In this document: piece by piece, positions 2,021 to 63,006 of the stretch | Numbering within the stretch: position 1 is the stretch's first letter | Layout: every line of letters begins with the position of its first letter | NCBI GenBank assembly: GCA_042263625.1 | Contig: JBHKFL010000006.1 | Span: 3,766-67,765, forward strand | Source: Candidatus Malihini olakiniferum | GTDB taxonomy: Bacteria > Pseudomonadota > Gammaproteobacteria > Enterobacterales > Enterobacteriaceae | Length of the DNA: 64,000 nt | Reading direction: 5' to 3' | Translations under genes and position numbers: made by a program | Notes under the pieces: generated by a model | What the model saw: the letters and a program-made list of their open reading frames with translations, nothing else | Databases searched by the model: none | What the model was told of the DNA's origin: nothing

Positions 2021-2052
2021 CATCCGCCTGAAGGGACATCTTCAGGCGGATG
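2021..2052. repeat. perfect inverted repeat, 13-bp arms, 6-nt loop
   Basis: CATCCGCCTGAAG-ggacat-CTTCAGGCGGATG, overlapping the panD remnant. Confidence 0.95.
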
Positions 2053-2350
2053 ATGCAGGCGTGCTTCTTCATCTTCATCTAATCAATTTATCGCCAACGC
2101 AGGCATAGCGTGCTACTGCATTGTTAACAAAAATAATGCGTGACTCTCTTTCTACTATACTGCAATAGCATAAATAGAGAAACGCTCTACCTTCTATCTT
2201 CTGGCTATCAAGAACTTCATCTTCCAGAATGCCAGTAGCATCCATAAATTTTTAATCAGTAGCACAAGAACCTTCATAGATCTAGATCTGCCTAAATTAC
2301 TTTTACCCCCCCGAGGCACCTTACTTTGCAGCATAGTGTGCGTACATCAC
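2040..2350 (-). pseudogene. panD: aspartate 1-decarboxylase remnant
   Basis: Fragments MLQSK, YEGSCATD*KFMDATGIL, ERFSIYAIA, RIIFVNNAVARYACVGDKLI and DEEARLHHP, with stops and frameshifts. Confidence 0.85.
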
Positions 2351-2384
2351 TGTCTATTACCTAGATTAATGTCTATCCTGCCTG

Positions 2385-2660
2385 TCAGTCGAAGACCAGC
2401 TCAACATCGATCTACTGGTTATCAATCAAAAGGTTTTTCCTAGACCTGGCAAAGCCGCCATCAATGTCGAGAATATAGAGCTCATCTGGCGTAAACACAG
2501 TTTCACTTAATGACTCTGCGGCGCTAGTTAGTGTTTCTTCCGACTAGTCGCCATTGCTCAGCTTCTTTACTGCTTGATCCATGATGCGTTTAAGCGCTGT
2601 GGCTAAATGAGCCTCTTAGGGCTAAGATAACTGACGAATTAGCGCTAACTGTTGTTAATC
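2385..2660 (-). pseudogene. panC: pantothenate synthetase, C-terminal remnant
   Basis: KRIMDQAVKKLSNGD*...FTPDELYI...LIDNQ* matches the PanC C-terminus. Confidence 0.8.
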
Positions 2661-2769
2661 CTGTTTACCAAAACAGGCTATGTTAGGTTGTACTATGTTG
2701 AACAGCTTGCTGACACCGGACGAGACTTGTGCCTTCTAACATGGAAGAGAGCCCAGAAAATTCGACAAA

Positions 2770-2990
2770 CGATTATTGAAACAGTCGATTAAGATCGACG
2801 ACTTCTAGAAACAGAAGGTCGGAAATCAGTAGGTTTAATCGCTCTGCGCGCTGTATGCAGCGTGCTTGATGCGATTTTACTTTCAGTGACCGTAAGCGAG
2901 GAATCATATCCAGAGAGTCACCAAACATCATAACGCGAATACCATTTTGTAGGTGGAATAGAAGGAGGTAAGGCATAGCGATAAATTCAC
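2770..2990 (-). pseudogene. panB: ketopantoate hydroxymethyltransferase, N-terminal remnant
   Basis: NGIRVMMFGDSLDM resembles QGIKVLLVGDSLGM, followed by LLISDLLF; syntenic position. Confidence 0.75.
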
Positions 2991-3022
2991 AGTTGAAGGG
3001 TCAAACTGTGACTGATGTGGTC

Positions 3023-3514
3023 TCAGTCCTGCTCATTCCACAGAGTCATGCCGTTACGCGGTACAGAATCCAGGCGAGACATCAACGCTTCACTATCGGG
3101 AAAGTGTAGATCCGGGGCGATATCAGCTAACGGATATAACATGAATTCTCTGTTTTTCATATCATAGTGGGGAACTATTAAACGCGCGGTGTTAAGGGTT
3201 TCGTTACCATACAGTAAAATATCCAGATCTAAGGTACGTGGCCCCCAGCGATGCACTTTATGCTCACGGCCGTGCTGCTGTTCAATCGCCTGGGTGTGAT
3301 CCAGTAAGGCTTCTGGTACGAGTACCGTTTCCAGAGCGACTACAGCATTGAGATAATCAGGCTGATCCTGCAGCCCTAGTGGGCGGCTACGATAAAACGG
3401 AGAGCAGCACAGTACACGCGTGAGTGGCAAGGTATCCAGTACGGACAGCGCAGAGTTGACTTGTTGTAACGGATGCTCCAAGTTGCTACCCAGCGCAAGA
3501 TAAACACGCGTCAC
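3023..3514 (-). CDS. folK: 2-amino-4-hydroxy-6-hydroxymethyldihydropteridine diphosphokinase
   Basis: VYLALGSNL and [15 protein letters not shown] motifs; GTG start overlaps the pcnB stop (GTGA). Confidence 0.95.
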
Positions 3515-10780: not shown

Positions 10781-11482
10781 TCAGGCTTTTCCGGAAAGCT
10801 CTTCTAACATGGCTTCGACTATGCGTGATGATTGCTTGGTTGCCACAGCTAGAAAATCGTCAAAACTTAGTTTTGAGTCTTTGCCTGCGACATCAGAGAT
10901 GGCGCGTACCACCACGAAAGGAACATAGAACTGATGGCATACATGGGCAATAGCCGTTGCTTCCATTTCGACGGCGACGGACTGCGGGAAGGTACGGCGA
11001 ATACGGGATAGCGGTTCTGCACTATTGATAAAGGAATCACCACTGACGATAAGCCCTTGGACCGCATGCAGTTGCAGAGACGTAATCGCACGCTCTGCCA
11101 ATGCAATAAGCGATACGTCTGCAGGAAATGCTGCCGGACAGCCAGCCATCTGACCCGCTTCATAACCGAACGCGGTGACATCCACATCATGATAGCGTGC
11201 TTCGCTTGATATCACGATATCGCCGACGTTTAAAGTCGGCGATAGGCCGCCAGCAGAGCCGGTATTGATGATGATATCGGGTTGTGCGTATTCCAGAAGC
11301 AGCGTTGTGCCCATCGCGGCGGAAACCTTACCAATACCGGATTGTAGCAGCGTTATCTCTAAGCCTCTCAACCAGCCGATATAGATTACGCATCCGGCGC
11401 GCGTAAAGGTTGTAAGCTTTTCAATGCGATCGCGAAGAAGCGTCACTTCTTGTTTCATGGCACCGATAATGCCGACTTTCAT
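10781..11482 (-). CDS. mtnN: 5'-methylthioadenosine/S-adenosylhomocysteine nucleosidase
   Basis: [22 protein letters not shown] and VRAISD motifs. Confidence 0.95.
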
Positions 11483-11619: not shown

Positions 11620-12300
11620 AAGAAGAGCGTTCAGCGGGCCTCTTAGTCAACCAATTACGATTGAGAGTGAATGTGATATTTTTTATTTATTTGAACAATG
11701 ATAGGAGACGGTCTCATCAACTCCGCCCTGATTAGCCATTTACAAAAAAAAGACGAAAGTGTTTCCGCTAGAGCGGAACGCCGCCGAATGCGGATGATAG
11801 GAAACTCAGCTATTCTGCATTACCATGCAGAATAGCTGAGTCTATTTTTTGGTGCATACTCTGCGTAAGCAGAACCTTATAGCCTAATTTGTTGTATTCT
11901 AAAAATGTCTAGAGAGGCTCTTATATTGTTGATTTGTATTACACATATCTTTAATAGATGGGCTACTCTTCTTTCCTAAGAAGCTTTTATTGCTGAGTTG
12001 CGAAAGCAACTATCACTGGACGAATACCATCGCTTCCCGCTCACCCTATATTATGGAAGCGGTTAACGACATCTCCTACTGCGTCGTCCTAACCAGTAAA
12101 CAATTAATTATATCTGCCGCCACTCTAGACATGGCGGGGATAGAGAGCTTCCGCATTTTTCTAAAAACAGTAGAGTAGGTCTACAAAAGCCGAAAACAGC
12201 ATTTCGGGTGCAGTACCTACAGTCAATGTTTTATGCTGTTGCATGTTAATACCGTGTGGCGCTGGTGGTACTATATACCTTATATGTCGCATCTTTTTCT
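11620..12300 (+). pseudogene. dgt: dGTP triphosphohydrolase remnant
   Basis: LINSALISHLQKK-KVFPLERNAA and YIMEAVNDISYCV fragments. Confidence 0.85.
11804..11841. repeat. perfect inverted repeat, 17-bp arms, 4-nt loop
   Basis: ACTCAGCTATTCTGCAT-tacc-ATGCAGAATAGCTGAGT inside the dgt remnant. Confidence 0.95.
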
Positions 12301-12726
12301 TAAAAAGGACCTTCCAGTTAGGATAGCTCTTTTGATGAGGCGTTGCTAGAGGATAAGGGCGCGCAGGGCAGGATAAGCTATTGCGAGTATTTAAAAATGG
12401 TATATAATTATATGTTTAATAATGTAGATTCTCAAAATGTATTATGACCCTTTCAGCCTGAAAGGGAAAGATGATGCATCCGCATTATTCTATTGAACTC
12501 AGGTTGTCCGATAACTTTCCAGCAAGCATAGCTTTGGCTTATCGTGAAGCCACGCCTCAGACTTTCCTCTCTCGTGCGTTGGAAATCTATTATTGTGCAC
12601 GATTTAGTCAGTACTTGATCAGTGAGATGACATAATCTTTACGCTTATGGAGAAAATACCGGCAGCATAACAATGCTATGAAAAGCAGTTCCGTAATTAC
12701 TTACGTTTAGTCTGGCGCATAGTGAT

Positions 12727-12801: not shown

Positions 12802-14235
12802 ATGAAAAGAAAATCATTGGTTCTGAGTGCATTGGCGCTGAGTCTGGTAATGAGCATGTGGCAAGTCGCCGCGGCGACAGAGGCGACAAGATTAACATCC
12901 AGCCAGATGCCAAGTCTGGCTCCGATGCTCGAGAAAGTGATGCCTTCCGCCGTTAGCATCTCTATTGAAGGGCATACCGACATCAAGCGCAGCAATATTC
13001 CGCAGCAGATTCAACCTTTCTTTGGCGAAAATTCACCGTTCTGTCAGGAAGGTTCTCCCTTCCAACACTCCCCGATTTGTCAGGGAGGTGAAGATGAAGG
13101 AGAAGAGAGCGTGCCTGCGAATCGTGAGCATTTTCAGGCACTTGGTTCTGGCGTGGTGATTAACGCAGAGAAAGGCTATGTGGTAACTAATAACCACGTG
13201 GTAGAAAACGCGGATAAGATTCAGGTACGGCTCTACGACGGACGCAGATACGACGCTAAAGTGATTGGCAAAGACACGCGTACCGATATTGCATTAATCC
13301 AACTAATTGATTTTAAAAGACTAACAGCCATTAAGATCGCTGATTCCGATCAGTTATGCGTGGGTGATTATACAGTCGCGATTGGTAATCCGTATGGCTT
13401 AGGCCAGACGGCTACGTCCGGCATTGTTTCCGCGCTGGGGCGCAGCGGACTCAATATCGAAAATTATGAAAACTTTATCCAGACCGATGCAGCAATCAAC
13501 CGAGGCAACTCAGGTGGCGCATTAGTTAACCTCAATGGTGAACTTATCGGTCTGAACACTGCTATCCTTGCACCGGACGGCGGGAATATCGGTATTGGCT
13601 TTGCGATTCCTAGCAATATGGTGAAAAATCTGACAGCGCAACTGCTTGAATATGGCGATGTGAAACGCGGTGAGCTAGGTATTACCGGCACTGAGCTAAA
13701 CTCCGATTTGGCACAGGCGCTGAAAGTAGATGCGCAGCGCGGCGCGTTTGTCAGCCAGGTCAGGGCGAAATCAGCAGCAGATGACGCTGGCATCAAGGCT
13801 GGTGACGTAATTTTGACGCTGAATAATAAACCGATCAGCAGCTTTTCTGCACTACGTGCACAGGTTGGTTCTTTGCCAGTTGGAAGTAAGATCAAGCTAG
13901 GCTTGCTGCGTGAGGGTAAACCATTAACAGTAGAAGTGACCTTACAGCAGGCAAATCAGACGCAGATGGCCTCTGGCAATCTCTATCCTGGGATCAGCGG
14001 AGCATCACTCAGCAACACCGAAATCGAAGGACAGAAAGGTGTGAAGGTGGATGATGTAAAAGTTAGTTCGGCTGCAGCGAAAATTGGTTTGAAGAAGAAT
14101 GACGTGATACTTGCTGTTAATCAGCAACCGGTGCAGAATCTCGGCGAACTGCGTACAATCCTGGACAGCAAGCCTACTGTATTGGCACTGAATGTGCGAC
14201 GTGGAGATATAACACTTTATCTATTAGCACAATAA
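12802..14235 (+). CDS. degP: periplasmic serine endoprotease DegP
   Basis: Signal peptide, TNNHV and GNSGG catalytic motifs, two PDZ domains. Confidence 0.96.
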   Translation: MKRKSLVLSALALSLVMSMWQVAAATEATRLTSSQMPSLAPMLEKVMPSAVSISIEGHTDIKRSNIPQQIQPFFGENSPFCQEGSPFQHSPICQGGEDEGEESVPANREHFQALGSGVVINAEKGYVVTNNHVVENADKIQVRLYDGRRYDAKVIGKDTRTDIALIQLIDFKRLTAIKIADSDQLCVGDYTVAIGNPYGLGQTATSGIVSALGRSGLNIENYENFIQTDAAINRGNSGGALVNLNGELIGLNTAILAPDGGNIGIGFAIPSNMVKNLTAQLLEYGDVKRGELGITGTELNSDLAQALKVDAQRGAFVSQVRAKSAADDAGIKAGDVILTLNNKPISSFSALRAQVGSLPVGSKIKLGLLREGKPLTVEVTLQQANQTQMASGNLYPGISGASLSNTEIEGQKGVKVDDVKVSSAAAKIGLKKNDVILAVNQQPVQNLGELRTILDSKPTVLALNVRRGDITLYLLAQ

Positions 14236-14244
14236 ATAATAGAA

Positions 14245-14276
14245 GCCCTTTCAAACTGAAAGGAGCGTATTCTTTT
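14245..14276 (+). terminator. intrinsic terminator of degP
   Basis: CCTTTCA-aac-TGAAAGG stem followed by a T-rich tract. Confidence 0.6.
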
Positions 14277-14379
14277 CGCTCCTTTTTATTTTGGCTTTTG
14301 CAAACCTCCCTTTTGCCAACTGGGCAATGTTCTGCTAGCCTGGGAAAATGCGATCGGTTGGATATTAGTACATAGTCGA

Positions 14380-14690
14380 TATCTATTTTAGTAGAGAGGC
14401 CGGTAGCAGAATCTTTTATGGATAAAGTGATTGAGTGTAAAGGCACGCAAAAACAGGCTAAAGCTTATCTGAAATACCTCTGCGGGGATGCACACTGCAC
14501 TGCGTAATGCTTCGATAGCCGAAGAGTTTAAAGGTAATCTTGGTTTTAATCTTATTTTAGATAGATGAATTAGCTATTTAAATTTGATTTTATTGATCTT
14601 AGTGTCATCTATTCCACTTACAGTACTGTATAAAACCAATAGGTTTATTGTTTAGCTATGTTTCTTTCTACGCTGGTTAGGACTGGTTTT
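14380..14690 (+). pseudogene. possible LysR-family (yfeR-like) remnant
   Basis: Fragments FSR-AGSRI and EEFKGNLGFNLILDR* resemble a LysR HTH; orientation fits yfeR next to valU. Weak. Confidence 0.3.
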
Positions 14691-15469
14691 GCTTTGGCAT
14701 TTGCACGCGTAGTAAGGAAAGGAATAGGAATACGGTTCGGTGATACTTATTACGGGGAATATTCGGTTTAAAAATTTCCCCTCCCTTTCTGATTGCATCC
14801 AAGTTTAATTAGTATTAACTGCAAGGTAACTGCAAGGGTAAAATTAGTTGCAGCGTTTAGGCTATTGGTTTCTTTCATTATAATACTAATTGCATAGAAT
14901 AGGTACTTGCTATCTCTGCACGAGCTCCTAAGGCTAAAAACGCGCACGCACCTATTATATACTGGTAACGCTAGCTTAGCTTGTAGTTTTTCTGCTGCTG
15001 ATATTGCCATGATTGATAGTACTGATCTAGGAGTTGATGAATGCGTTGGTACATTCTAGAATGTGATTTCTAAACTCGAAACCTAATTGCCAGGCATTTT
15101 TACTCAACTCATTTTATAGTAAAATTAATGGTAGCTGCGCTGAGCAATATTAATAATTAACCCTATGTATATTCAAAATATTTTGTGAAAGACAACATAG
15201 CGTAGTGTCCCCCTTTTAGTAGGGTAGAGAAAGCAAATTCATTTAACATAGCTAGTTAAACTTGCTGTGTTAGTTACGATAACAAGCTCGTAGCCGGTAA
15301 CATAGTGAAAAATTAACGTTAAAAAATAGAGAAGACACAAAGACGGATAGGAAAAAAATGCAAATAGAGACATAAGCGTTCATAGTTAATAAACATAGTT
15401 TTTGTTTGCACGATGTTTTAGATAGGAAAACGTGGCCTTTAAGAAGTAATAAAAGAATTTTTACAGAAA

Positions 15470-15545
15470 TGGTGGGTCGTGCAAGATTCGAACCTGCGAC
15501 CAATTGATTAAAAGTCAACTGCTCTACCGACTGAGCTAACGACCC
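15470..15545 (-). tRNA. tRNA-Lys(TTT)
   Basis: 76 nt, GGGTCGTTAGCTCAG...ACTTTTAATC...CCCACCA, near-identical to enterobacterial lysV. Confidence 0.97.
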
Positions 15546-15552
15546 ATAGAAG

Positions 15553-15628
15553 TGGTGGGTGATGACGGTATCGAACCGCCGACCCCCTCCTTGTAAGGGA
15601 GGTGCTCTCCCAGCTGAGCTAATCACCC
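15553..15628 (-). tRNA. tRNA-Val(TAC)
   Basis: 76 nt, GGGTGATTAGCTCAG...CTTACAA...CCCACCA; T-loop reads TTCGATA. Confidence 0.97.
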
Positions 15629-15878
15629 TCACTGTCTAAAGATGATTATAGGGATAGTTGAAAGTGAGTCAACGGTTTTTTAAATGCAAAATTTATGTTC
15701 ATCATAAAATCAAAAAAGTCTCTTTTTTAGAGAGACCGGTTGATAATTCGGTGGATTGTTTACCCTAGTGCACGCTCAATATGTTTGCAGCATTGAAGAA
15801 TCAGGGAAAAGTGATAGAATACTAGTGCTGTTGCTAGTGCCTTTCAGGGAGGCGTAAGTAAGAACGCTTATTATCCTA

Positions 15879-17294
15879 ATGAAAATTAAAACTCGTTTCG
15901 CGCCAAGCCCCACTGGATATCTGCATGTCGGAGGCGCTCGTACTGCGCTTTACTCGTGGCTCTTTGCACGTCACCATGGGGGTAAGTTTGTTTTACGCAT
16001 TGAAGACACTGATCTAGAACGCTCAACTCAGGATGCTATCAATGCCATTATGGACAGTATGAAGTGGTTGAGCCTGGATTGGGATGAGGGTCCGTACTAC
16101 CAAACTAAGCGTTTCGATCGCTATAACGCAGTGATTGACGAAATGTTAGTGCAGGGTACCGCCTATAAGTGCTATTGCAGCCGTGAACGTTTGGAAGCAC
16201 TCCGGGAAGATCAAATAAAAAAGGGTGAAAAACCTCGCTATGACGGCTACTGCCGCGATTTTCATAAGCATCCTGTAGCAGATGAACCTGACGTAGTCCG
16301 TTTTCGGAATCCGCAAGACGGTTTAGTGATTTTTAACGACCGTATTCGTGGTCCGATCGAATTCAGTAACCAGGAATTGGACGATCTGATTATTCGACGT
16401 ACTGATGGTTCGCCTACTTATAACTTCTGCGTAGTGATTGACGACTGGGATATGGAAATTACGCATGTTATCCGTGGGGAAGATCATATCAGTAACACCC
16501 CACGTCAAATTAACATCCTGAAAGCGTTGGGTGCACCGGTTCCGGAATACGCCCATGTGTCGATGATTCTCGGCGATGATGGAAAGAAACTGTCCAAGCG
16601 TCATGGTGCAGTGGGTGTTATGCAGTATCGTGATGATGGTTATCTGCCGGAAGTTCTACTCAACTATCTAGTTCGTCTAGGTTGGGCGAATGGCAATCAG
16701 GAAATTTTTTCCATTAAGGAGATGACGCAGTTGTTTACACTGGATGCTGTAAGCAAATCAGCCAGTATTTTTAATACCGAAAAGTTACAGTGGCTCGATC
16801 ACCACTATATTAATCATTTACCTGCTGAATATGTAGCGACGCACCTGTCATGGCATATTCAGCAAGCTGGGATCGATACCCGCATCGGGCCACAACTCAG
16901 TGAACTGGTAACACTGCTGGGTGAGCGCTGTAAAACGCTGAAAGAGATCGCGGCATCTTGTCGTTATTTCTATGAGGATTTTGGCGAATTTGATGCCAAT
17001 GCTGTCAAGAAATATCTGTGTCCAGTCGATCGACAACCGCTGGAGCTAGTACGTGAGAAACTTGCCCATATCAGTGACTGGATGCCGGAAAACATTCATC
17101 ATGCTATTCAGAGCACAGCAGATGAGCTACAACAAGGCATGGGTAAAGTAGGTATGCCACTGCGTGTAGCTATAACTGGTGCAGGTCAATCACCTAGAGT
17201 GGATGTCACGGTGCATGCGATTGGTCAGCAACGGGCATTGGCACGCATCGATAAAGCTCTATCCTTTATCGTCGAGCGTGAAGTACAGCAATAA
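15879..17294 (+). CDS. gltX: glutamate--tRNA ligase
   Basis: [11 protein letters not shown] and KLSKR motifs; divergent from the valU-type cluster. Confidence 0.97.
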
Positions 17295-17839
17295 ATACCT
17301 AACTCACAAGATCAATTTGCGCTCATTGCAGCTTTCCCTTATGAAGAACCCGCTACCGTGGGGCATTTTTTATGATCCACTCGTTTTATAAACGAGATGC
17401 CTTTATGTTCTGTTATGCTAGCCTTTTAAAAAATTACTGTGATGTAAGTGCCACCTTTATGATTTTGCCCCCGTATGGGAGATCACACGCCAAACTGAAG
17501 TAGCTCTTTGTGTTTTCAGAAAATGTTGCGACAGGGGCTGTCCCCGTATGCGCAAAAGGCTAGAGGCGATCATGTTACTAAGCACAATAGGAAAATAGCG
17601 TATAAAGACCTATTTAGGTTATATTGAGTGAGTAAAAATATGAAAAAATACGGTATCCTTACCAAGGATTTTTCTGTTTTTACGCTGGGCAGCACATCAA
17701 CAACGCCAATAAAAGCGGAGAACTAGCCTCTTTTTTCAGCGATTACTTGTTGGAGTAAGTAGATTTGGCCGTTGACGCAAATGAGGGGGTTGCATATTAG
17801 GCATGCCGTAATATGTGCCACTGTCTGATGTAATGTAAT

Positions 17840-17915
17840 GGGGCTATAGCTTAGCAGGCAGAGCGCTTGCATGGCATGCAAGAGGTCAGCGGTTCGATCC
17901 CGCTTAGCTCCAACA
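17840..17915 (+). tRNA. tRNA-Ala(GGC), degenerate, no encoded CCA
   Basis: alaW/X-like; G3:U70 and GGC anticodon intact; D-arm reads GCTTAGCAGGCAGAGC; 3' end ACA. Confidence 0.85.
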
Positions 17916-18051
17916 CTCTCTTCTTATTTGAATTTTCTATTTGCTTTTCTCTAAAAGATTTCTTATGCGCCCGAGTATAAGGTCTTTCTGCCCTTCTTCC
18001 AAGATCGCAGACAGTTTGCGTTGTGTCCTCCCGCCTGCATAAGCGAATTCA

Positions 18052-18741: not shown

Positions 18742-19042
18742 TCTGTCCTCGATGCTTATGTTGTGAAAGAGGACTGTATCTTACCGATCCCTAAGCTAGG
18801 GATAAAATACTGCAATAGAAAAATTCAATCTATAAAAAGGTAAATTATAAAAAATTAAAAAAATTATAAAACACTGCATCGTTTCTTTTGGTTAACTTTG
18901 ATGCTGAAAAATTAATTGCTTGCTGAGTGTTTTTTTATACTAAATGAATTGCTTTAAATCGAAGTTAAAACCTCGTAGCCTTAGTGAGTACTGCAACCCT
19001 TTCCAGTTTCAGACCCGATTACGCGATTTTACAGAGACTGTT

Positions 19043-19433: not shown

Positions 19434-19450
19434 TCGCACTCTTCTGATGA

Positions 19451-19485
19451 TAAAAAGAGGGAGTAAAAGATCCCCTTTTGAAAAA
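19451..19485. terminator. probable bidirectional terminator between srmB and grcA
   Basis: AAAAGAGGGA..TCCCCTTTT stem between convergent genes. Confidence 0.5.
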
Positions 19486-19486
19486 A

Positions 19487-43010: not shown

Positions 43011-43024
43011 TTGATAGTAAGAGA

Positions 43025-46858: not shown

Positions 46859-46992
46859 TCTACCACCTCATCAGCAGTGAGATCATGACTCGGTCATAGC
46901 TTCAACATTGAACAAACCGTCTTAAACCCCCTAGAACGCGGTTTTATCGACCAAACGGTTTTAAACCGCATAGAGAACGATAGAGAACTGAT

Positions 46993-48288: not shown

Positions 48289-49635
48289 GTGGAAGGCTAT
48301 ACCACTGAGAATGAGCAAGTTGGTGCGTTGCGCCGATTCTTTTCCTGCGACAAATGGGTCGTAGGCGAATCCGCTACATGCATTGCAGGCGTTGTTGCAC
48401 AGGCGTTGTTGCATATGAAATTAAATCACCTGATAAGGGCTAAGAGAAACATCATACCCTTGGGTAAAACACTTATAGTTTTGATGCTTTCTCTGACTTT
48501 TTTGAGCGGATGTTCGTTATTCAGAGGCGAAGAAGATGTAGTGACTATGTCACCGCTTCACAAGGTAGAGAACCAGTTTATACCGATAAAAGTCTGGAGC
48601 AGCTCTGTGGGGAGTGGCCTCGACGGGCACTATTCCAACTTGCGTCCAGCCTGGATAGGCGGAAGCATCTTTGCAGCCGATCGTAAAGGATTAGTAAAAG
48701 CGATGGCTTTGGCGAACGGAAAAGAGCTGTGGAGTGCCGATCTGTCCAAAAAACGTGGACTTCTCTCTTCGCGTGAATCCGCGCTACTTTCCGGCGGCGT
48801 GACGGTCTCTGGCGATCATCTATATGTCGGTAGCGAGCGAGCAGAAGTTTTTAGGCTCAATGCGGCAGACGGTACGATCGAATGGAAAGCCACAGCATCG
48901 GGTGAAGTGTTATCACGCCCTGTAGTGAGTGATGGCGCGGTGCTGGTTCACACCAGCAATGGCATGTTGCAAGCGCTAAACGAAAGTGACGGAGCCATCA
49001 AATGGACAGTAAACCTGGCTATCCCGACGCTTTCGCTGCGCGGTGAATCTGCGCCAGCAACGGCGTTTGGTGCAGCCATAGTAGGCGGAGATAACGGTCG
49101 TGTGAACGCTGTGCTGATTAACCAAGGGCAACTGATTTGGCAACAGCGCATCGCTCAAGCGAGCGGTTCGACCGAAATCGATCATCTGAATGATGTAGAC
49201 ACTACGCCAGTTGTAGTCGGTAAACTAGTGTATGCACTGGGTTATAACGGCAATATGACGGCGCTGGATCTACGATCTGGTCAGATCGTATGGAAACGCG
49301 AACTGGGCAGCGTACAAGATTTCGTGATTAATGGTGATGGCATTTTTGTCGTGGATCAAAATGATCGCGTGGTAGCACTCAGTACTAAAAGTGGCGTTAA
49401 TTTATGGCGGCAAAGCAATCTGCTGCACCGTAATCTTACAGGCCCGGCACTGTATAATGGTGATCTGGTGGTGGGAGATTCTGAAGGTTACCTACATTGG
49501 ATTAATACTACAGATGGTCGTTTCGTTGCACAGTATAAAGTGGATAGTTCCGGCTTTCTAAGCGCCCCGATGTTGGCTAGTGACAAGCTGCTGATTCAGG
49601 CGAAGAACGGTGAAGTCTACGCGTTTACCCGCTAA
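48289..49635 (+). CDS. bamB: BamB lipoprotein fused in-frame to a YfgM remnant
   Basis: YfgM N-terminus (YTTENEQV-ALRRFF) and C-terminus (LL-MKLN-L) precede lipobox LSGC and PQQ-like repeats. Confidence 0.92.
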   Translation: MEGYTTENEQVGALRRFFSCDKWVVGESATCIAGVVAQALLHMKLNHLIRAKRNIIPLGKTLIVLMLSLTFLSGCSLFRGEEDVVTMSPLHKVENQFIPIKVWSSSVGSGLDGHYSNLRPAWIGGSIFAADRKGLVKAMALANGKELWSADLSKKRGLLSSRESALLSGGVTVSGDHLYVGSERAEVFRLNAADGTIEWKATASGEVLSRPVVSDGAVLVHTSNGMLQALNESDGAIKWTVNLAIPTLSLRGESAPATAFGAAIVGGDNGRVNAVLINQGQLIWQQRIAQASGSTEIDHLNDVDTTPVVVGKLVYALGYNGNMTALDLRSGQIVWKRELGSVQDFVINGDGIFVVDQNDRVVALSTKSGVNLWRQSNLLHRNLTGPALYNGDLVVGDSEGYLHWINTTDGRFVAQYKVDSSGFLSAPMLASDKLLIQAKNGEVYAFTR

Positions 49636-51232: not shown

Positions 51233-51299
51233 TCAGAATGGAGCAGAATGGAGGATTGTCACCACATGTTATGGTTGCATTGGATGGTAATGACCCTCT

Positions 51300-52016
51300 T
51301 CTAACTTTACCATGCACACCTGTTGATCTTGCTGATGGGGGCGTAGTTAGATGACGCTTTGTGCGATGCAGTTTGGGTACTATTACCAGGTTTTATTGCT
51401 CCAATAACGAAAAGGGTGTACTCTTCAGCAAGAAAGCGCTGCTGACCAGCATTGCGACCAACCATCTTCTTATATTTCGTGTCCTATTCCAAGCCTAGAT
51501 AGGCGATGCCTGATTTGCATGTTTAAGTTGGGATTGCAGTATCCTGGCGAAAATCTAAATTTCAAGATCATGCTGCGCACTAGTAACGTTGCAGCACTCT
51601 CCACAGTGGCTAAACTAGTGGTCATACCAGGGGAGTAAAGGCTACGCTTTGGGCTTACTTCATAACTGACGGCGCTGAAGACGGGAATATCCTTAAATCT
51701 CCAGAGATCTTCCAGCGAACCGCCACCACGGCACAGCAATCACTCTATCACACTCCTGCTGTTGGTTGGCAAGCTGGATGGGGCGAACAATGTGCACTGC
51801 ACTGGGATATCTTCACCGCGGCGCGGGCTGCATACTCTACTGCCAGTAGTTAGTAATCCCCCTCCGGATTCGTTCGTATAGGGTATAGAAGAACAATCAC
51901 AAGTCGCTTGCTGGTACGAAACATAGTGCATCGTACCTCAGTTTCTAGAAACAATCGCCTGACCGTTTGATTGAAGCGTCTGACACTAAAAATAGTGGAC
52001 GATGGCGCTTGGAACA
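51300..52016 (-). pseudogene. xseA: exonuclease VII large subunit remnant
   Basis: RFNQTVR and RGGGSLEDLW-F-IPVFSAV fragments with large deletions; divergent from guaB. Confidence 0.9.
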
Positions 52017-52079
52017 TAATGTTAGCCAAGCTGGCTTTATGAGAAAAATCAAATATTAAAACAGAGGGTTAATTACCAG

Positions 52080-52152
52080 ATTATACAGAGCCTAATCGCT
52101 TGCCTCCAGCTTTCATAAAAAGCTGGAGGCAAGCGATTAGGCTCTGTATAAT
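52080..52152. repeat. perfect inverted repeat, 34-bp arms, 5-nt loop
   Basis: ATTATACAGAGCCTAATCGCTTGCCTCCAGCTTT-cataa-AAAGCTGGAGGCAAGCGATTAGGCTCTGTATAAT. Confidence 0.97.
52124..52152 (+). promoter_or_regulatory. guaB promoter with overlapping PurR-like box
   Basis: TGGAGG-17 bp-TATAAT aligns with the enterobacterial guaB promoter (TAGATG-17-TATAAT). Confidence 0.75.
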
Positions 52153-52195
52153 GCAACGGCAATATTTTACACATCCCAATATGAGATATTGCCCA

Positions 52196-53683
52196 ATGCT
52201 ACGTATTGCCAAAGAAGCACTGACGTTTGATGACGTACTCCTGATTCCCGCTCACTCTACGGTTCTACCGAATACTGCTGACCTCAGTACTCGTCTCACG
52301 AAGAACATTCGTCTGAATATTCCTATGCTCTCTGCCGCCATGGATACCGTCACTGAATCCAGCTTGGCTATCGCATTGGCACAGGAAGGTGGTTTGGGTT
52401 TTATTCATAAAAACATGTCGATTGCGCGTCAGGCAGAAGAAGTCAGTCGTGTAAAACGCTATGAAAGCGGCGTTGTAGTTTATCCACAAACGGTGACCCC
52501 GAGCACCACATTGCGTCAAGTAAAAGAATTGACCGAGCGTAACGGTTTTGCCGGTTACCCGGTGGTGACGGACGATAACGAGTTGGCAGGTATTATAACC
52601 GGTCGTGATGTGCGTTTTGTGACTGATTTGGAATGCCAAGTCAGCGTAGTGATGACGCCGAAAGAACGCCTCGTAACGGTGCCTGAAGGAGAAGCGCGGG
52701 AGGTCGTGCTACAAAAAATGCACGAGAAACGTATTGAAAAAGCGCTGGTTGTAGATGATAGATTCCATCTACTTGGCCTTATTACCGTAAAAGATTTCGA
52801 GAAAGCAGAACGAAAACCTAACGCCTGTAAAGACGAGTATGGCCGCTTGCGCGTTGGTGCTGCTGTCGGCGCAGGGGGTGCGGGTAACGAAGAACGTGAA
52901 GAACGTGTTGATGCGTTAGTTTCTGCCTGTGTTGACGTGTTGCTAATTGACTCCTCACATGGCCACTCCGAAAGGGTATTACAGTGCATTCGTGAAACTC
53001 ATGAAAAATATCCTGATCTGCAGATTATCGGTGGTAACGTTGCGACTGGAGCTGGTGCCAAGGCGCTGGCTGAAGCGGGTGTGAGCGCAGTAAAAGTAGG
53101 CATTGGCCCTGGGTCTATTTGTACTACCCGTATCGTTACCGGTGTAGGTGTACCGCAGATTACCGCAATTTACGACGCTGTAGAAGCGCTTGAAGGTACG
53201 GGCATTCCTGTGATTGCTGACGGCGGAATCCGTTTTTCCGGTGATATTGCCAAAGCTATTGCAGCGGGAGCATCCTGTGTGATGGTGGGATCTATGCTAG
53301 CTGGAACTGAAGAATCTCCTGGTGAGATCGAGCTTTATCAGGGACGTGCATTTAAATCTTACCGTGGGATGGGATCTCCGGGTGCTATGTCCAAAGGATC
53401 TTCTGATCGATACTTCCAAAGCGACAATGCTGCTGACAAACTAGTACCGGAAGGAATTGAAGGGTGTGTAGCTTATAAAGGCCGCCTAAAAGAGATCGTG
53501 CATCAGCAGATGGGGGGCTTGCGTTCTTCGATGGGGCTAACAGGCTGCGGTACGATCGACGCATTGCGCAAGGCTGAGTTTATACGCATCAGCGGTGCTG
53601 GTATTCAGGAAGGACATGTACATGATGTCAGTATCACCAAGGAATCCCCGAACTATCGCATGGGTTTATTTGAAGCTGGCTAA
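52196..53683 (+). CDS. guaB: IMP dehydrogenase
   Basis: [17 protein letters not shown] pair, [11 protein letters not shown] catalytic loop. Confidence 0.97.
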
Positions 53684-57999: not shown

Positions 58000-59190
58000 T
58001 TATAGCACCAGCCCTGCGATTGATGCCGAGAGAACGCTAACCAGCGTGGAGCCGTAAACTAACTTGAGACCGAAGCGGGAAATCACGTTACCCTGATTTT
58101 CGTTCAAACCCTTGATAGCACCGGAAATGATACCAATGGATGAAAAGTTGGCGAAAGACACCAGAAACACGGAAAGAATCCCTATGCTAGGTGCAGAAAG
58201 TTGGCTTGCAACTTTCTGCAGTTCCAACATAGCGACGAATTCATTGGATACCAGTTTGGTGGCCATAATACTGCCGACCTGTAACGCTTCGTTAGCAGGA
58301 ATTCCCATGATCCAGGCAAAGGGGAAGAATACATATCCCAGCATTTCCTGGAAACTAATACCGAACACAGCGCTGAAAATAGCGTTAACCATTGTAATTA
58401 GTGAGATAAATCCGATTAGCATAGCGGCAACAATACAAGCCACTTTGAAGCCTGCCAGGATATATTCTCCCAGCATTTCAAAGAAACTCTGGTTTTCATG
58501 TAGATCTCGTAGTTGCAGCTCAGGCTCGGCGTCTACTTTATACGGGTTGATCAATGACAATACGATAAAGGTGCTGAACATATTCAGAATCAGAGCCACC
58601 ACTACATATTTAGAATCCAGCATGGTCATATAGGCACCTACGATGGACATCGATACGGTCGACATGGCTGTTGCTGCCATGGTATACATGCGTTTTTCTG
58701 ACATCTTTCCAAGGATCTCTTTATAGGCAATGAAGTTTTCTGATTGTCCGAGAATCAACGAACTGACAGCATTAAACGATTCTAGCTTACCCATACCGTT
58801 CACTTTGGACAGCGTAGTACCGATGGCAAGAATAACGATGGGCAGTACTTTTATGTGCTGGAGGATCCCTATCAGTGCCGAAATAAACACGATAGGGCAA
58901 AGCACTTTGAAGAAGAATGAAATAAGGTTCTTCTCGTGGTTAACCATATCGCCAAACACAAAATCAGTCCCTTTTCCGGCAAAACCCAGCAATTTATCAA
59001 AGACGGCGGAAAACCCCTTTATAAAGCCCAACCCTACGTTAGAATATAGGAAGAACCAGGCAAGCAGAATTTCAATCACTAACAGTTGAATAATAAATCG
59101 GATACGAATGCTTTTACGATCGCGGCAGGCAAGCAACGCCAAACCAGGCACGACAAGCAATGCCAACGCAAATTGCGCAATATGAGTCAT
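58000..59190 (-). CDS. nupC: concentrative nucleoside transporter (NupC family)
   Basis: [21 protein letters not shown] and SFANFSS motifs; GGAG SD before ATG 59190. Confidence 0.9.
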
Positions 59191-59881: not shown

Positions 59882-59915
59882 CAAATAAAAAATACGCAAC
59901 GGTATTTTTTATTTG
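59882..59915 (-). terminator. AT-rich hairpin, probable purEK terminator
   Basis: Perfect 14-bp arms CAAATAAAAAATAC/GTATTTTTTATTTG, with a T tract following on the minus strand. Confidence 0.55.
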
Positions 59916-59997: not shown

Positions 59998-61062
59998 TTA
60001 AATCATCGATTGCGCCCACTGTAATCCAGAACGATAGTCTTCAGGTAATAATAGCATTAGTGACTGCAACGTATTCTGTAATTCAATGTGATCGCTGCGC
60101 GTTAAGTTCAAGTGACCGACTTTACGCGCTGGACGCACTTCTTTATCATACCAATGAAGATGAACAATCGGCAGTGAGAGCCAATCCTGATTCACCTTTA
60201 TGCCGATCAGATTGATCATAACTGCAGGTGCCTCAATCACTGGTTTTGGTAATGGAAGACCGAGAAGGACACGCAAGTGCAATTCAAACTGGCTGATAGA
60301 AGCGCCATTTTGTGTCCAATGGCCGCTGTTATGCACGCGTGGAGCTAATTCGTTAATAAGCAAACGATCGCCAACAATAAAGCACTCCATTGCCATCACG
60401 CCGATGTAACCCAGATCATTCATAATAGCGGCAAGCATGTTTTCTGCCTGTTGCTGCATGCGTGCGTCCGGATCCGGGAGTGCAACGCAGACGCGCAGAA
60501 TGCGATTCTCATGTAAATTATGCGTCAGCGGATAGAAGATACAGTGTCCATCCGCACTGCGTGCACCTACCATTGACACTTCACCGGAAAAGGCAATGTC
60601 CTGTTCTACAATGCACTCGCCATAGCATTCTTGCGGCAGCGTATGAGTAGTCTCATACAGTAAGCCCCACTGCCCACGGCCATCATAGCCACCTACGCGA
60701 CTCTTAACAATCACCCGTTCACCCAGACGGGTGAAGATCTCTGCCCACTCTTGCTCTCTGGTTAGTAATTGCCAGAGAGCCGTGGGTAATTGCAAAGAAT
60801 CCAACAGCTGTTTTTGCGTAAGGCGATCGGACAGACACGGAAAAATATCACGATTAATGAAGGCAGCATGCTCAGCCAGTTCACGCGTCAAGGCAGTTTC
60901 TGGCCAGTGTTCGATCTCTGCAGTGATAACGGCCTGATGAAAAGGCACAGATTTAGGCTCTGCATCCAATCCCACTGGGTAAACCGCAATGCCCAAGGGT
61001 TCACCAGCTTGACGTAACATTCGTCCCAGTTGGCCGTTTCCTAATACACAAATGGGTTTCAT
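59998..61062 (-). CDS. purK: N5-CAIR synthase
   Basis: [15 protein letters not shown] and APRVHNSGH motifs. Confidence 0.96.
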
Positions 61063-61568
61063 GCATCCTCTCTCGGATCGGGATGGGCCAATACCTCATT
61101 GGTTTGCTGTTGACGCCAAGCGGAGAGACGAACAGCCAGCTCTCCATCATGTAAGGCTAGAATCTGTGCGGCGAGCAGGGCAGCATTGGCGGCCCCTGCT
61201 TTGCCGATAGCCAGAGTGCCCACGGGAATACCACGCGGCATTTGTACAATAGAGTACAGGCTGTCAACGCTGCTTAATGCTGCACTCTGTATCGGCACAC
61301 CTAGTATCGGAACCAATGTTTTCGCTGCTAGCATGCCGGGTAAGTGAGCTGCTTCCCCGGCGCCTGCGATGATCACGCTAAAACCGTTTTGAGTAGCTTG
61401 CTCTGCAAAGCTAAACAGCTTATCCGGTGTACGATGCGCTGAAACAACTTCGGTGTGACATGGGATAGCGAGTGTGGTGAGAATTTCCACAGAAAACCGC
61501 ATCGTAGCCCAGTCACTCATTGAACCCATGACAATGGCAATTTTAGCTGGAGCAGCTTTAGATGACAT
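61059..61568 (-). CDS. purE: N5-CAIR mutase
   Basis: MGSMSD, SAHRTP and [10 protein letters not shown] motifs. Confidence 0.96.
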
Positions 61569-61674
61569 ACTTGTGGTGCTTCTGTAATATTGTATTGAGA
61601 TGCATTTCTGCAGCGGCCAGAAAGAGATAAAATTCTAGGTTGAATAAGGAAGATCATATCATAAAATTGTGAGA

Positions 61675-61690
61675 AGGAAAACGGTTGCGT
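61675..61690 (-). promoter_or_regulatory. PurR box of purE
   Basis: Minus strand reads ACGCAACCGTTTTCCT, as in the enterobacterial purE operator. Confidence 0.85.
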
Positions 61691-61765
61691 AGAGGTAAAA
61701 TGGCGGTACTCAGCCGAGTGATACGTTATTTGTTTACAACAAAGTCAGCGAAAAGCTTGAAGAGA

Positions 61766-62488
61766 TCAGAAGAGAGATGAAATCAATGCGGTATCATCAG
61801 ATGTGACTTTTATCATCCACCCTTGTTCATGCCAGGCACCAAGTACAGCACGTTGTACTTCGCCGCTTTCTGTAATAAAAGTATGAATAGCTGGTCGATG
61901 GGTATGACCGTGAATCAACATTTTTGCTGCATGCGTCTGAAAAAATACCTGCACAGCTTGCGGGTTGACATCCATGATCTGCTGAGATTTTTGTCGGTTT
62001 ACCTGCTGGCTTGCATCGCGCATTCTGTCTGCAATCTTAAGACGAAAACTTAACGGTAAATGTAGGAATATCCATTGGATAACCGGCTTGTGTACGCATC
62101 GGCGATATTTCTGGTAGGCCTCATCATCACTGCACAGGGTATCGCCGTGCATGATCAGTATCCGGCGACCATAGAGTTCCACTAGCTGTTCTGTGGGCAG
62201 CAGTGTCATGCCTGCCCGTTTGGCAAAACGTTTGCCTAGCAGAAAGTCACGGTTTCCGTGAATGAAGTAGCAGGGAACGCCAGACTGTTGCAACTGATGC
62301 AGTGCCTCGGCGACAATCGCATGCAGCGATTGAGGATCGTCATCGCCAATCCAGGCATCGAATAGATCGCCCAATATGTAGAGCGCCTCAGCCTGTTGTG
62401 CATCACGCTTAAGAAAACGCAGAAAAATGGCGGTAATCGACGGTTCCTGTGCGTTAAGATGCAGGTCGGAAATAAACAGTGTCACCAT
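61766..62488 (-). CDS. lpxH: UDP-2,3-diacylglucosamine diphosphatase
   Basis: SDLH, LGDLFD, GNRD, HGD and HGHTH metallophosphoesterase motifs. Confidence 0.96.
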
Positions 62489-62499
62489 ATTGTCCGCAA

Positions 62500-63006
62500 T
62501 TATTCGATGAGGATAATTCTGGTTACAATCACATTTTTAGAACGTCTTGGTACATGCAGCTGCAGCCTGTTGTTACGCTTTTGATCTTATCAAAAGCGTT
62601 CATGGTTTCAGTTACTTACTGCAAACACACAGTAACCCAAGCCTTCTGCACTCTTCAGAACAGAAGAGAAAATCTTTATCAACCAGGTTAATAAAAAACT
62701 GTGCGGTAGCTGAATTCGGATCGTTAGTGCGCACCATGGACAGCACGCCATGCGTGTTTTTTAATCTGTTGTTAGCTTCATTAGCGATAGGCTCCTGTGT
62801 CACTTTCTTTGCTGAATGTTTGTCTGCAAACATGTTAATGATGAGGTCACTGAATTTATTATATAATGTGCTCATAATGAGCAAACGCTGATAATCAGAA
62901 GGATGAGATAAGAACCGCCAGGCAGCTTTGTCTGCACAAAGGCTGAATAATCAAGGCTCTCTTATAGCATAACTGGTTGCGTGAGTCAGTAATGTGCAGG
63001 AACCAT
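62500..63006 (-). pseudogene. ppiB: peptidyl-prolyl isomerase B pseudogene
   Basis: [29 protein letters not shown] and DKIKSVTTG fragments, frameshifted. Confidence 0.92.
62575..62599. repeat. perfect inverted repeat, 11-bp arms, 3-nt loop
   Basis: ACGCTTTTGAT-ctt-ATCAAAAGCGT inside ppiB. Confidence 0.93.

Follow-up and report, generated by a model that had tools for sequence, protein, structure and literature searches.

How a stretch of bacterial DNA comes to carry many perfect hairpins that share no sequence is the question raised by the 64-kb segment analyzed here, the whole of which we call the window. The DNA comes from an insect symbiont of the Symbiopectobacterium/"Ca. Malihini" clade (Pectobacteriaceae) that evolves fast and is rich in pseudogenes.

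Hairpin density in the window and at comparison loci

We scanned the window for perfect arms of at least 9 bp with loops of 0 to 12 nt. All ten hairpins of the initial annotation were recovered at their positions and with their arm lengths (10/10), together with others at 46842 (11-bp arms), 58192 (12 bp), 59446 (11 bp, an A/T run), and 11218 and 44045 (10 bp each), as well as ten further 9-bp hairpins that it had lacked. At minimum arm lengths of 9, 10, 11, 12, and 13 bp, the window held 25, 13, 11, 7, and 6 hairpins, respectively, versus 2.7, 0.53, 0.2, 0.07, and 0 in 30 dinucleotide-preserving shuffles, bearing out the expected enrichment over composition-matched sequence at the scale of the window. 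Chance accounts for about 2 of the 12 hairpins with 9-bp arms and not for the long ones. Ten of the 11 hairpins with arms of at least 11 bp lay outside intact coding sequence; the intact coding sequence itself (40.9 kb) contained 9 hairpins versus approximately 1.7 expected from shuffles. No repeat family or common sequence linked the window hairpins, in agreement with the view that they are not REP, ERIC, or MITE elements, and we found no terminal repeats or target duplications at them. A single 15-nt match between 12708 and 44943 was at chance level for 64 kb.

The shuffles were too lenient a null and inflated the apparent excess, because other Enterobacterales loci also far exceeded the shuffle expectation. 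When guaB ± 10 kb from 80 other Enterobacterales (1.62 Mb) was scanned as the window was, the counts for minimum arm lengths of 9, 11, and 13 bp came to 13.8, 4.7, and 1.4 per 64 kb; the original chance expectation of well below 1 for arms of at least 11 bp was thus the wrong null. The corresponding window counts (25, 11, and 6) represent about 2 to 4 times this density, so that the window is also enriched relative to other Enterobacterales. Its guaB-centered 21 kb held 11, 7, and 3 such hairpins, above all 80 loci (maxima, 10, 5, and 2). Orthologous coding sequence contained 5 hairpins in 22.3 kb of the window, 2 in 67.5 kb of nondegenerate relatives, and 3 in 14 kb of degenerate Malihini. 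The noncoding density of the window (about 4.3 per 10 kb, arms of at least 11 bp) did not clearly exceed the intergenic density of free-living relatives, so the accumulation could partly reflect tolerance in dead DNA.

Ancestral states of the hairpins

Polarity from outgroups covered the hairpins other than those at 2021, 32952, 58192, 43032, 44045, 35638, 37464, 40909, and 7542. At five sites (52080, 44921, 11804, 23346, and 62575), the orthologues compared had no hairpin, and alignment shows the window hairpins to be new or rewritten on one side. The hairpin at 52080 to 52152 (34-bp arms, 5-nt loop CATAA) lies in the xseA-guaB spacer and overlaps the guaB promoter. Its right arm (52119 to 52152) holds the -35/-10 region, with TATAAT at 52147 to 52152, and is identical to Symbiopectobacterium, Pectobacterium, and Edaphovirga at 32 of 34 positions. 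The left arm is complementary to the right arm at 34 of 34 positions and identical at 16 of 34 to the unrelated ancestral sequence, of about equal length, that it displaced. At 44921 to 44968 (20-bp arms, loop of 8 nt), where a spacer separates the rlmN and rodZ pseudogenes, the right arm is identical to relatives L009 and L011 at 15 of 20 positions and the left arm at 10 of 20, with pairing having risen from 9/20 to 20/20; this stretch aligns with the rlmN-rodZ spacer at the orthologous place in relatives. The hairpin at 62575 to 62599 (11-bp arms, loop of 3 nt), in a frameshifted ppiB pseudogene, replaced an ancestral 5-bp palindrome, TTGAT-CTT-ATCAA. Its right arm changed from CCACA/CCATA to AAGCG, which now complements the left arm; of five contiguous positions, four acquired the base that pairs with the opposite arm, and pairing went from 5 to 7 of 11 to 11 of 11.

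The remaining two lie in pseudogenes whose background divergence (25 to 30%) makes their arm-by-arm polarity approximate. The 17-bp hairpin at 11804 to 11841 (plus strand, loop of 4 nt followed by a T-run) adjoins a deletion of about 380 bp in the dgt pseudogene and looks like a de novo terminator. The ancestral sequence (L081 and L091) has no hairpin and contributes only the parts ACTCAGCTATT and GGTAATGCA, and the origin of the window hairpin needs at least two events. At 23346 to 23369 (11-bp arms, loop of 2 nt), in the rseB pseudogene, no hairpin was present in S. purcellii, the "North America" strain, or Malihini, relative to which the window carries 8 extra nucleotides and a new left arm.

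A second group (46842, 12448, 11218, and 22317) consists, by the same alignments, of ancestral imperfect palindromes since made perfect, and here, as at 60753, all changes increased pairing. The 11-bp hairpin at 46842 to 46868, which spans the ispG stop codon, had an ancestral pairing of 7/11 and became perfect through five changes over both arms. At 12448 to 12466 (9-bp arms, loop of 1 nt; dgt pseudogene), four clustered changes around a contiguous core, TCAG-C-CTGA, raised pairing from 6/9 to 9/9. Within intact genes, two adjacent substitutions (CC to AT) perfected a 10-bp hairpin in mtn (11218 to 11244; 8/10 ancestrally), a single C-to-A change perfected a 9-bp hairpin in rpoE (22317 to 22342; 8/9), and five clustered changes raised a 9-bp hairpin in purK (60753 to 60780) from the 5/9 seen in Malihini to 9/9. 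In bamB (49271 to 49290, 9-bp arms), three synonymous changes to A raised pairing from 6/9 to 9/9, which could be A/T drift. The 12-bp hairpin in intact nupC (58192 to 58220, codons 337 to 346) keeps the reading frame, and its right arm differs by two residues (T to Q and P to A) from E. coli, which is too distant for polarity. In Malihini, an rseB quasipalindrome (L090:4606) was independently perfected from 15/20 to 20/20. Alignment to orthologues thus revealed the clustered changes in one arm, complementary to the other, that had been anticipated, at 52080, 44921, 62575, 12448, and 46842. The hairpins had also been placed mostly in dead reading frames. Of the ten annotated hairpins, six do lie there: dgt has 11804 and 12448, rseB has 23346, mltF has 32952, ppiB has 62575, and iscA has 43032, a 9-bp hairpin with a 1-nt loop at 43032 to 43050 in an iscU/iscA remnant. 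The two largest, 52080 and 44921, are intergenic.

A minority of hairpins have the form of rho-independent terminators, that is, a G+C-containing stem and a T-run after a gene. The 9-bp hairpins at 14259 to 14285 (plus strand, degP) and 24105 to 24131 (plus strand, rseC) directly follow stop codons and are ancestral terminators; the first has an identical stem in L081, and the second is conserved in position in relatives, with its stem altered by paired substitutions. The A/T-rich 14-bp hairpin at 59882 to 59915 (minus strand, loop of 6 nt) lies 83 nt downstream of purK with a minus-strand T-run. Relatives have an imperfect A/T-rich inverted repeat there, in a poor alignment, and it is probably an ancestral terminator later perfected. 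Of these three, only 59882 figured in the initial annotation, which took its hairpins not to be ancestral terminators.

Loop inversions in a related strain

We next compared six hairpins, which were not picked blind, with assembler contigs of a public run from a relative about 95 to 97% identical to the window (strain X1; about 3 to 5% diverged); polymorphism within the X1 population is not visible in such contigs. The X1 contigs hold the arms of 2021, 11804, 23346, 32952, 46842, and 52080 (both arms in the last case) within the same flanks, so these hairpins are not assembly artefacts. At 11804, the loop TACC is GGTA in X1, and at 23346 AA is TT; both are exact inversions, the arms are unchanged at both sites, and X1 keeps the ancestral orientation in each case. 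At 2021 to 2052 (13-bp arms, loop of 6 nt), between the yadH stop codon and a panD pseudogene remnant and possibly within the panD 3' end, X1 has the same arms, and its loop reads AGTCC in place of GGACAT, one T short of the reverse complement ATGTCC. At 32952 to 32985 (13-bp arms, loop of 8 nt), in a minus-strand mltF pseudogene remnant (32688 to 33128, matching MltF residues 131 to 306), the loop TATTTGAG is TAAATA in X1, nearer to the reverse complement CTCAAATA, with one arm difference. This is a remodeled loop rather than a clean flip, probably by inversion. The hairpin at 46842, whose loop includes coding sequence and the stop codon, is the same in X1, and the degP terminator shows point changes and no flip.

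We used as a baseline 65 hairpin comparisons from 15 pairs of related loci 1 to 12% apart, almost all from other Enterobacterales and mostly functional terminators of free-living species, among which there were no exact flips. Against this baseline, flips between the window and X1 were in excess whether two of six (Fisher test, P value = 0.006) or four of six (P value = 1.5 × 10−5) were counted. The arms were conserved, with 1 difference in 130 arm bases where local divergence predicts about 5.5 (P value = 0.027). With k = 31 exceeding the arm lengths of 11 to 17 bp, de Bruijn assembly could not have made the loop flips. Inversions between close strains, which the initial annotation had not anticipated, are strong support for template switching. 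X1 also carries three hairpin-associated deletions: 24096 to 24133, with the entire rseC hairpin; the 460-bp segment (44619 to 45078) in which 44921 sits; and 942 bp starting 21 nt downstream of 2021. The process had initially been called a structural driver of genome decay, a role that it may have and for which the evidence consists of only these three deletions.

Exonuclease and repair genes

As initially annotated, xseA and recO are pseudogene fragments in the window. Detectable are residues 1 to 99 and 177 to 239 of 458 of xseA (51659 to 52017, minus strand, 39% identity) and only residues 62 to 101 and 211 to 241 of 244 of recO (28930 to 29176, plus strand). In seven relatives (L001, L002, L003, L006, L009, L011, and L015), xseA is intact (457 to 462 amino acids). 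Both ExoI and ExoVII reportedly abort quasipalindrome template-switch events, with ExoI as the stronger suppressor (bioRxiv 10.1101/2020.10.27.357855); sbcB (ExoI) is not in the 64-kb window. The loss of xseA and recO may be linked to hairpin formation, as initially proposed.

Alternative explanations

Simple retention of ancestral terminators or regulatory palindromes would fit the hairpins after degP, rseC, and purK, and in intact relatives nearly all hairpins sit in spacers 3' of genes. As a general account it is unlikely, since a stem with a T-run occurs in only 4 of 25 window hairpins, one of which (11804) is new and inside dead dgt; six or seven hairpins lie inside former coding sequence, and the orthologues without hairpins refute it for the five rewritten sites. 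Chance combined with A/T-biased mutation would suit the arms at 24403, 59446, 7542, and 59882 (0 to 14% G+C), the synonymous changes in bamB, and the roughly two 9-bp hairpins predicted by shuffles, and several 9-bp hairpins within intact genes may have arisen in this way. It is rejected for arms of at least 11 bp by the shuffle counts, and 18 coordinated changes at 52080 or exact reverse complements of loops are beyond it, which makes it very improbable overall. Least credible of all are mobile-element remnants or insertions (MITE, REP, or IS ends) or assembly artefacts. The 460-bp segment missing from X1 and a 459-nt insertion in X1 at 10658 might suggest mobility, but the former aligns with the relatives' spacer, the latter is the site of btuF in relatives, the hairpins lack shared sequence, terminal repeats, and target duplications, and the independent X1 assembly repeats the arms.

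A possible though doubtful account is that template switching proceeds at the normal bacterial rate and that its products are tolerated in dead DNA, which makes up one-third of the window, with the loss of xseA and recO being irrelevant. The location of 10 of the 11 long hairpins outside intact coding sequence and the excess over shuffles in free-living genomes agree with it, as do reports that template switching perfects inverted repeats in ordinary Proteobacteria (PMC5941160). Against it, two to four of six loops flipped at about 3 to 5% divergence versus none of 65 at 1 to 12% in other lineages, and the orientation of a terminator loop should be nearly neutral anywhere; intact orthologous genes hold about 7 times more 9-bp hairpins than those of nondegenerate relatives, in small numbers.

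Template switching as the proposed source

Most of the long perfect hairpins in the window are probably products of short-range replication template switching, a reading that is well supported. From the differences between strains and from the patterns in the sequence and their polarity, we infer that a nascent strand would quit its template, copy a nearby stretch as its reverse complement, with either itself or the opposite strand as the source, and go back to the template, the switch points setting the outcome. A new inverted copy would overwrite existing sequence at the five rewritten sites, imperfect palindromes would become perfect (46842, 12448, 11218, and 22317), arms would stay identical through time, and loops would invert (11804, 23346, 2021, and probably 32952). 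Deletions also begin at or remove hairpins, as at 24105, 44921, and beside 2021 in X1, and a minority of hairpins are plain ancestral terminators.

Quasipalindrome template-switch mutation, the system to which the lacZ QP5/QP6 reporters belong, was reportedly described in E. coli and phage T4 by Ripley in 1982, Viswanathan et al. in 2000, and Dutra and Lovett in 2006. As in that system, clustered changes templated by the opposite arm perfect repeats in the window (46842, 12448, 11218, 22317, and 62575) and at the Malihini rseB site. Laboratory events alter a few bases at reporter sites, whereas in the window whole arms of 20 to 34 nt were rewritten and fixed in a natural lineage, and xseA, whose product is reported to abort such events, is dead. 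Small loops between perfect stems in chloroplast noncoding DNA are said to flip recurrently among close lineages, independent of phylogeny (reportedly noted by Kelchner and Wendel in 1996), a likeness found here in a bacterium rather than an organelle genome. Under the four-point model of short template-switch mutations (Loytynoja and Goldman 2017, PMC5453318; Monttinen and Loytynoja 2022, PMC8794818), template switching makes hairpins, and of the evidence for the model, loop inversion is rated the strongest (PMC8794818). The window shares with such events equal-length replacement by a neighbor's reverse complement, new perfect stems, several simultaneous compensatory changes, and loop inversions. 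Those cases come mainly from primate genomes and rRNA or miRNA genes, whereas the events in the window lie in a bacterial symbiont chromosome, mostly in nonfunctional DNA, and one of them overwrote a housekeeping promoter in its upstream half. The excess of perfect inverted repeats over chance grows with arm length, as in Proteobacteria (PMC5941160), and arms evolve in concert while spacers invert, as in yeast, where template switching homogenizes repeat arms and inverts spacers (PMC8604942). Those genomes are free-living; the window is 2- to 4-fold denser, and its loop flips are much more frequent than those at the loci used here for comparison. Unlike rho-independent terminators, most window hairpins have no T-run, lie within coding sequence, whether dead or live, and have no counterpart at orthologous sites. 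In the literature searched, we found no bacterial counterpart with loop flips at this frequency. The initial interpretation is thus partly supported, its observation of the hairpins being confirmed. Template switching is already known, and the window is a new and unusually active instance of it, in a lineage where its rate, beyond tolerance, may be elevated.

Gene content and affiliation of the window

NCBIfam scans of the window returned a syntenic, enterobacterial gene set made up of yadGH, folK-pcnB, mrcB, erpA, mtn, degP, gltX, ung, srmB, rpoE, rseC, lepAB-rnc-era, pdxJ-acpS, tadA, purL, glyA, suhB, iscRS, ndk, ispG-hisS-bamB-der, guaBA, trhP, nupC, and purKE-lpxH. About 23 kb of the 64 kb lies outside intact genes. 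Searching by tblastn with proteins of E. coli and relatives, we located pseudogene fragments of panD/panC (2081-2844), dgt (11639-12632), trmN, rseB (23240-23435), recO (28930-29176), mltF (32688-33128), iscU/iscA (42909-43141), rlmN (44199-44746), rodZ (45042-45461), xseA (51659-52017), and a frameshifted ppiB (62535-62875). The top protein matches of the window, whose G+C content is 45%, are to Symbiopectobacterium and "Candidatus Malihini olakiniferum" (84-92% identity). These matches, together with the pseudogene fragments, indicate that the window comes from a fast-evolving, degenerate member of the Symbiopectobacterium/Malihini clade. Malihini is a psyllid co-symbiont with genome decay at an early stage (PMC12360927).

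The order degP-gltX-ung-grcA-srmB (12802-20818) is common to the window and "Ca. Malihini olakiniferum" GCA_051305815 (locus L091), while the closest non-degenerate assembly (locus L081) has yfeC/yfeD after gltX instead, which suggests a closer affinity of the window lineage to Malihini. The window alone has the guaA-trhP-nupC-purK junction. The closest non-degenerate relative, GCA_015548865 (loci L002 and L081-L082, JADMXW01), is labelled Serratia marcescens, yet it shares 85-88% DNA identity with the window and resembles Symbiopectobacterium in gene order; the assembly has probably been mislabelled or is a mixture. The window also carries genes for tRNA-Lys(UUU), tRNA-Val(UAC), and tRNA-Ala(GGC) at 15470-15628 and 17839-17914. 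Over these genes, the contigs of X1, a public sequencing run holding a close relative of the window, have a depth raised 2- to 4-fold, as expected for multi-copy tRNA genes.

Perfect hairpins are enriched in the window

The initial annotation had listed ten perfect hairpins, all of which we found at their positions (hairpins are named here by start coordinate). A full scan of the window for perfect arms with loops of 0-12 nt gave 25 hairpins with arms of at least 9 bp, 11 with arms of at least 11 bp, and 6 with arms of at least 13 bp, compared with 2.7 and 0.2 expected from dinucleotide shuffles for the first two classes. These shuffles are too lenient a null, because the identical scan, run on the guaB regions of 80 other Enterobacterales (1.62 Mb in all), also gives many hairpins (13.8, 4.7, and 1.4 per 64 kb for the three classes). 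The enrichment was seen against these Enterobacterales as well as against the shuffles, and in its guaB-centered 21 kb the window has a hairpin count above that of every one of the 80 loci. Perfect inverted repeats are known to be enriched and conserved in Proteobacteria (PMC5941160).

We considered whether the hairpins belong to a REP, ERIC, or MITE family. A repeat search of the window found no consensus common to any two hairpins and linked no two of them into a family, in agreement with the initial annotation. The right arm of 44921 also matches the window at 12708 over 15 nt; this was rejected as a shared element, about two such matches being expected by chance in 64 kb. Rho-independent termination was likewise rejected as their general identity: a stem followed by a T-run is found in four hairpins only (11804, 14259, 24105, and 59882), and the other 21 either lack a T-run or lie within (former) coding sequence. 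From their conserved orthologous sites and T-runs, 14259 and 24105 are ancestral terminators, and 59882 is probably one too, while 11804 has the form of a terminator but is new. The earlier statement that the hairpins are not ancestral terminators holds for most of them; among the ten that it covered, 59882 is the probable exception.

Hairpin arms compared with orthologues

To assign polarity, we used orthologous DNA from Symbiopectobacterium purcellii, three to five other Symbiopectobacterium assemblies, GCA_015548865 (the closest non-degenerate assembly among the outgroups used), Pectobacterium, and two Malihini assemblies. The S. purcellii sequence around era (±10 kb) stops short of mltF/purL, leaving 32952 without an outgroup, and E. 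coli nupC is too diverged for polarity at 58192.

At 52080, 44921, and 62575, one arm has been rewritten as the complement of the other, the pattern expected from a template-switch origin. The right arm of 52080 (34 bp) is the conserved guaB promoter, identical at 32/34 positions in all relatives; the left arm is identical to the ancestral A/T-rich upstream sequence at 16/34 positions and complementary to the right arm at 34/34. Eighteen of 34 bases have changed in the left arm versus 2 of 34 in the right, and the replacement is of about equal length (34 nt versus 34-37 nt), so that, as a sequence pattern, 52080 reads as a textbook template-switch replacement. At 44921 (20 bp, in the rlmN-rodZ spacer), ancestral identity is 15/20 for the right arm and 10/20 for the left, pairing has risen from 9/20 to 20/20, and the loop is 3 nt longer than in relatives. 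At 62575, in the ppiB pseudogene, ancestral CCACA/CCATA has been replaced by AAGCG, which is complementary to the left arm; four of five adjacent bases have changed, and the arms now pair at 11/11. At all three sites the new tract is fully the reverse complement of the neighbouring arm (52080, 34/34; 44921, 20/20; 62575, 11/11), and this templating arm is conserved in the outgroups.

Hairpins 11804 (dgt pseudogene) and 23346 (rseB pseudogene) had no hairpin counterpart in any relative compared. The former adjoins a deletion and has gained about 6 T, a T-run with which it is now shaped like an intrinsic terminator upstream of degP; the latter has gained 8 nt. Length is roughly unchanged at 62575, 46842, and 12448 as well as at 52080, unlike at 44921, 23346, and 11804. 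Changes relative to the ancestor fall close together, between conserved flanks, at 52080, 62575, and 12448 (four changes within 19 nt at the last). Imperfect ancestral palindromes have been perfected at 46842, 12448, 60753, 11218, 22317, and 49271, where each lineage-specific change in the arms increases pairing. Malihini has six hairpins with arms of at least 11 bp in 42 kb, and in its rseB a 15/20 quasipalindrome has become a 20/20 hairpin independently of the window.

Loop inversions relative to a close relative

The relative in X1, known as assembler contigs, is about 95-97% identical to the window, and its contigs have the same hairpin arms and the same flanks. The loops differ in a particular way. 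At 11804 (window, TACC; X1, GGTA) and 23346 (AA; TT), the X1 loop is the exact reverse complement of the window loop, and at 2021 (GGACAT; AGTCC), it is the reverse complement minus one T. The loop of 32952 (TATTTGAG; TAAATA) has been remodelled and is closer to the reverse complement, an ambiguous case. The loop of 46842, which contains the ispG stop codon, is unchanged (AAGTA in both), and that of 14259, an ancestral terminator, has point changes only (TATTCTTTT; TATTATTTT). Since the outgroups show that X1 has kept the ancestral orientation at 11804 and 23346, the window lineage is the one that flipped.

As a baseline, we used 15 pairs of related loci that are 1-12% apart, nearly all from other Enterobacterales. 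Exact flips were absent among the 65 hairpins whose loops could be mapped: 37 loops were identical within the pair, and the other 28 differed by point changes. The difference from the six window hairpins, which were not chosen blind, was significant whether two or four flips were counted (Fisher's test, P value = 0.006 and 1.5e-5, respectively). The arms had a single difference from X1 over 130 positions, compared with about 5.5 predicted from local divergence (P value = 0.027). An artefact of the de Bruijn graph was rejected for arms of <30 nt, because the assembler's k is greater than arm lengths of 11-17 nt; hairpin 52080, whose 34-nt arms exceed that k, stands outside the flip count. Template switching creates and maintains hairpins, with loop inversion described as its strongest support (PMC8794818), and in inverted repeats arms are homogenized and spacers inverted (PMC8604942). 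Together, outgroup polarity and loop inversion support the template-switch interpretation for the long hairpins. In the proposed mechanism, the switch would arise in replication, with the nascent strand switching strands; a four-point model has been described (PMC5453318).

Deletions and other differences between strains

Among the differences listed between the window and X1, three are hairpin-associated deletions in X1: hairpin 24105 is precisely deleted (24096-24133), a 460-bp block containing 44921 is missing (44619-45078), and a 942-bp deletion starts 21 nt from hairpin 2021. An additional 700 bp is gone at the xseA remnant (51250-51949). X1 also lacks 37312-37399 and 328 bp inside iscR (40966-41293), a gene intact in the window; the genes being lost are not the same in the two strains. 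At 10658, where relatives carry btuF, X1 has 459 extra nt. A moving element was rejected as the source of the 459- and 460-bp indels, given btuF at the first site in relatives and the alignment of 44619-45078 to orthologous spacer, and the near-equal sizes look like coincidence.

A 14.9-kb X1 contig begins inside the right arm of the 52080 hairpin and matches the window over about 140 nt (52123-52260). There is no X1 coverage of 52.7-64 kb (guaBA, trhP, nupC, purKE, and lpxH), with 44-64 kb compared at a level of at least 85%. In the X1 strain, a rearrangement or loss seems to start just downstream of this hairpin. At the glyA start (38073-38281), short X1 contigs with a depth of about 400-fold match at lower identity and probably derive from a more abundant co-resident bacterium in the sample. 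Slippage-type events go along with the hairpin events: the trmN pseudogene has a perfect 23-bp tandem duplication (two copies of GATTACAAGTAATTTTGTGTGCT, 21487-21532), and X1 has a 6-bp tandem duplication, CCTCAT, directly after hairpin 46842.

Tolerance, a possibly raised rate, and exonuclease loss as a proposed cause

The excess of hairpins could reflect tolerance in dead DNA, a higher rate of formation, or both. Ten of the 11 long hairpins lie outside intact genes, and hairpin density per non-coding kilobase is not clearly greater than in the intergenic DNA of free-living relatives; tolerance therefore accounts for part of the excess. The intact genes of the window hold 9 hairpins in 40.9 kb, where shuffles predict about 1.7. 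For orthologous coding sequence, the counts are 5 in 22.3 kb for the window, 3 in 14 kb for Malihini, and 2 in 67.5 kb for non-degenerate relatives, a comparison of small numbers among relatives that are not mutually independent. These hairpins in intact genes and the loop flips (2-4 of 6 versus 0 of 65), both few in number, are suggestive of a higher template-switch rate besides tolerance.

Regarding the cause, the initial annotation had pointed to the loss of xseA and recO, and tblastn confirmed that only fragments of both, now dead, remain in the window, while seven relatives keep an intact xseA. Quasipalindrome mutations are reported to be aborted by ExoI and ExoVII, ExoI (sbcB/xonA) being the more important (bioRxiv 10.1101/2020.10.27.357855). 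Both xseB and sbcB lie beyond the 64 kb of the window, and in Malihini the purK contig (L095) breaks off without reaching a guaB/xseA region. Exonuclease (xseA) loss is a plausible hypothesis for the template switching, and template switching as a driver of genome decay is likewise put forward as a hypothesis.

Discussion

The mutational mechanism is established through Ripley's quasipalindrome model and E. coli reporter work, and we found no report of template-switch hairpins in insect endosymbionts in the literature searched. We therefore regard the window as a new case, and an unusually active one, of a mutational process that is already known. Among its notable consequences, the upstream half of the guaB promoter has been overwritten and a terminator-shaped hairpin has been born in a dead gene.

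A broader reading, which we hold only tentatively and think somewhat improbable, is that intramolecular template switching has become heritably more frequent in the degenerate Symbiopectobacterium/Malihini branch, plausibly following the loss of ssDNA exonucleases such as ExoVII. Hairpin birth, perfecting, loop flipping, and hairpin-anchored deletion would then together make up a mode of early genome decay that is distinct and measurable and that also rewires live regulatory DNA, as at the guaB promoter and with the hairpin upstream of degP in dead dgt.

Accounts of early genome decay in symbionts usually invoke point mutations, frameshifts, IS activity, and deletions. Should the loss of ssDNA exonucleases and recombination mediators leave template switching unusually active, it would add a mutational mode that makes multi-base changes in a single step, creating and maintaining secondary structure in neutral DNA, seeding deletions, altering promoters, and making terminators from nothing. 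Tests of the link between exonuclease loss and template switching have so far been made mainly in E. coli reporters, and related lineages with differing repair-gene losses and many neutral pseudogenes would provide a natural test system. For symbiont phylogenetics and rate estimates, loop flips and clustered hairpin changes will be miscounted as many independent substitutions.
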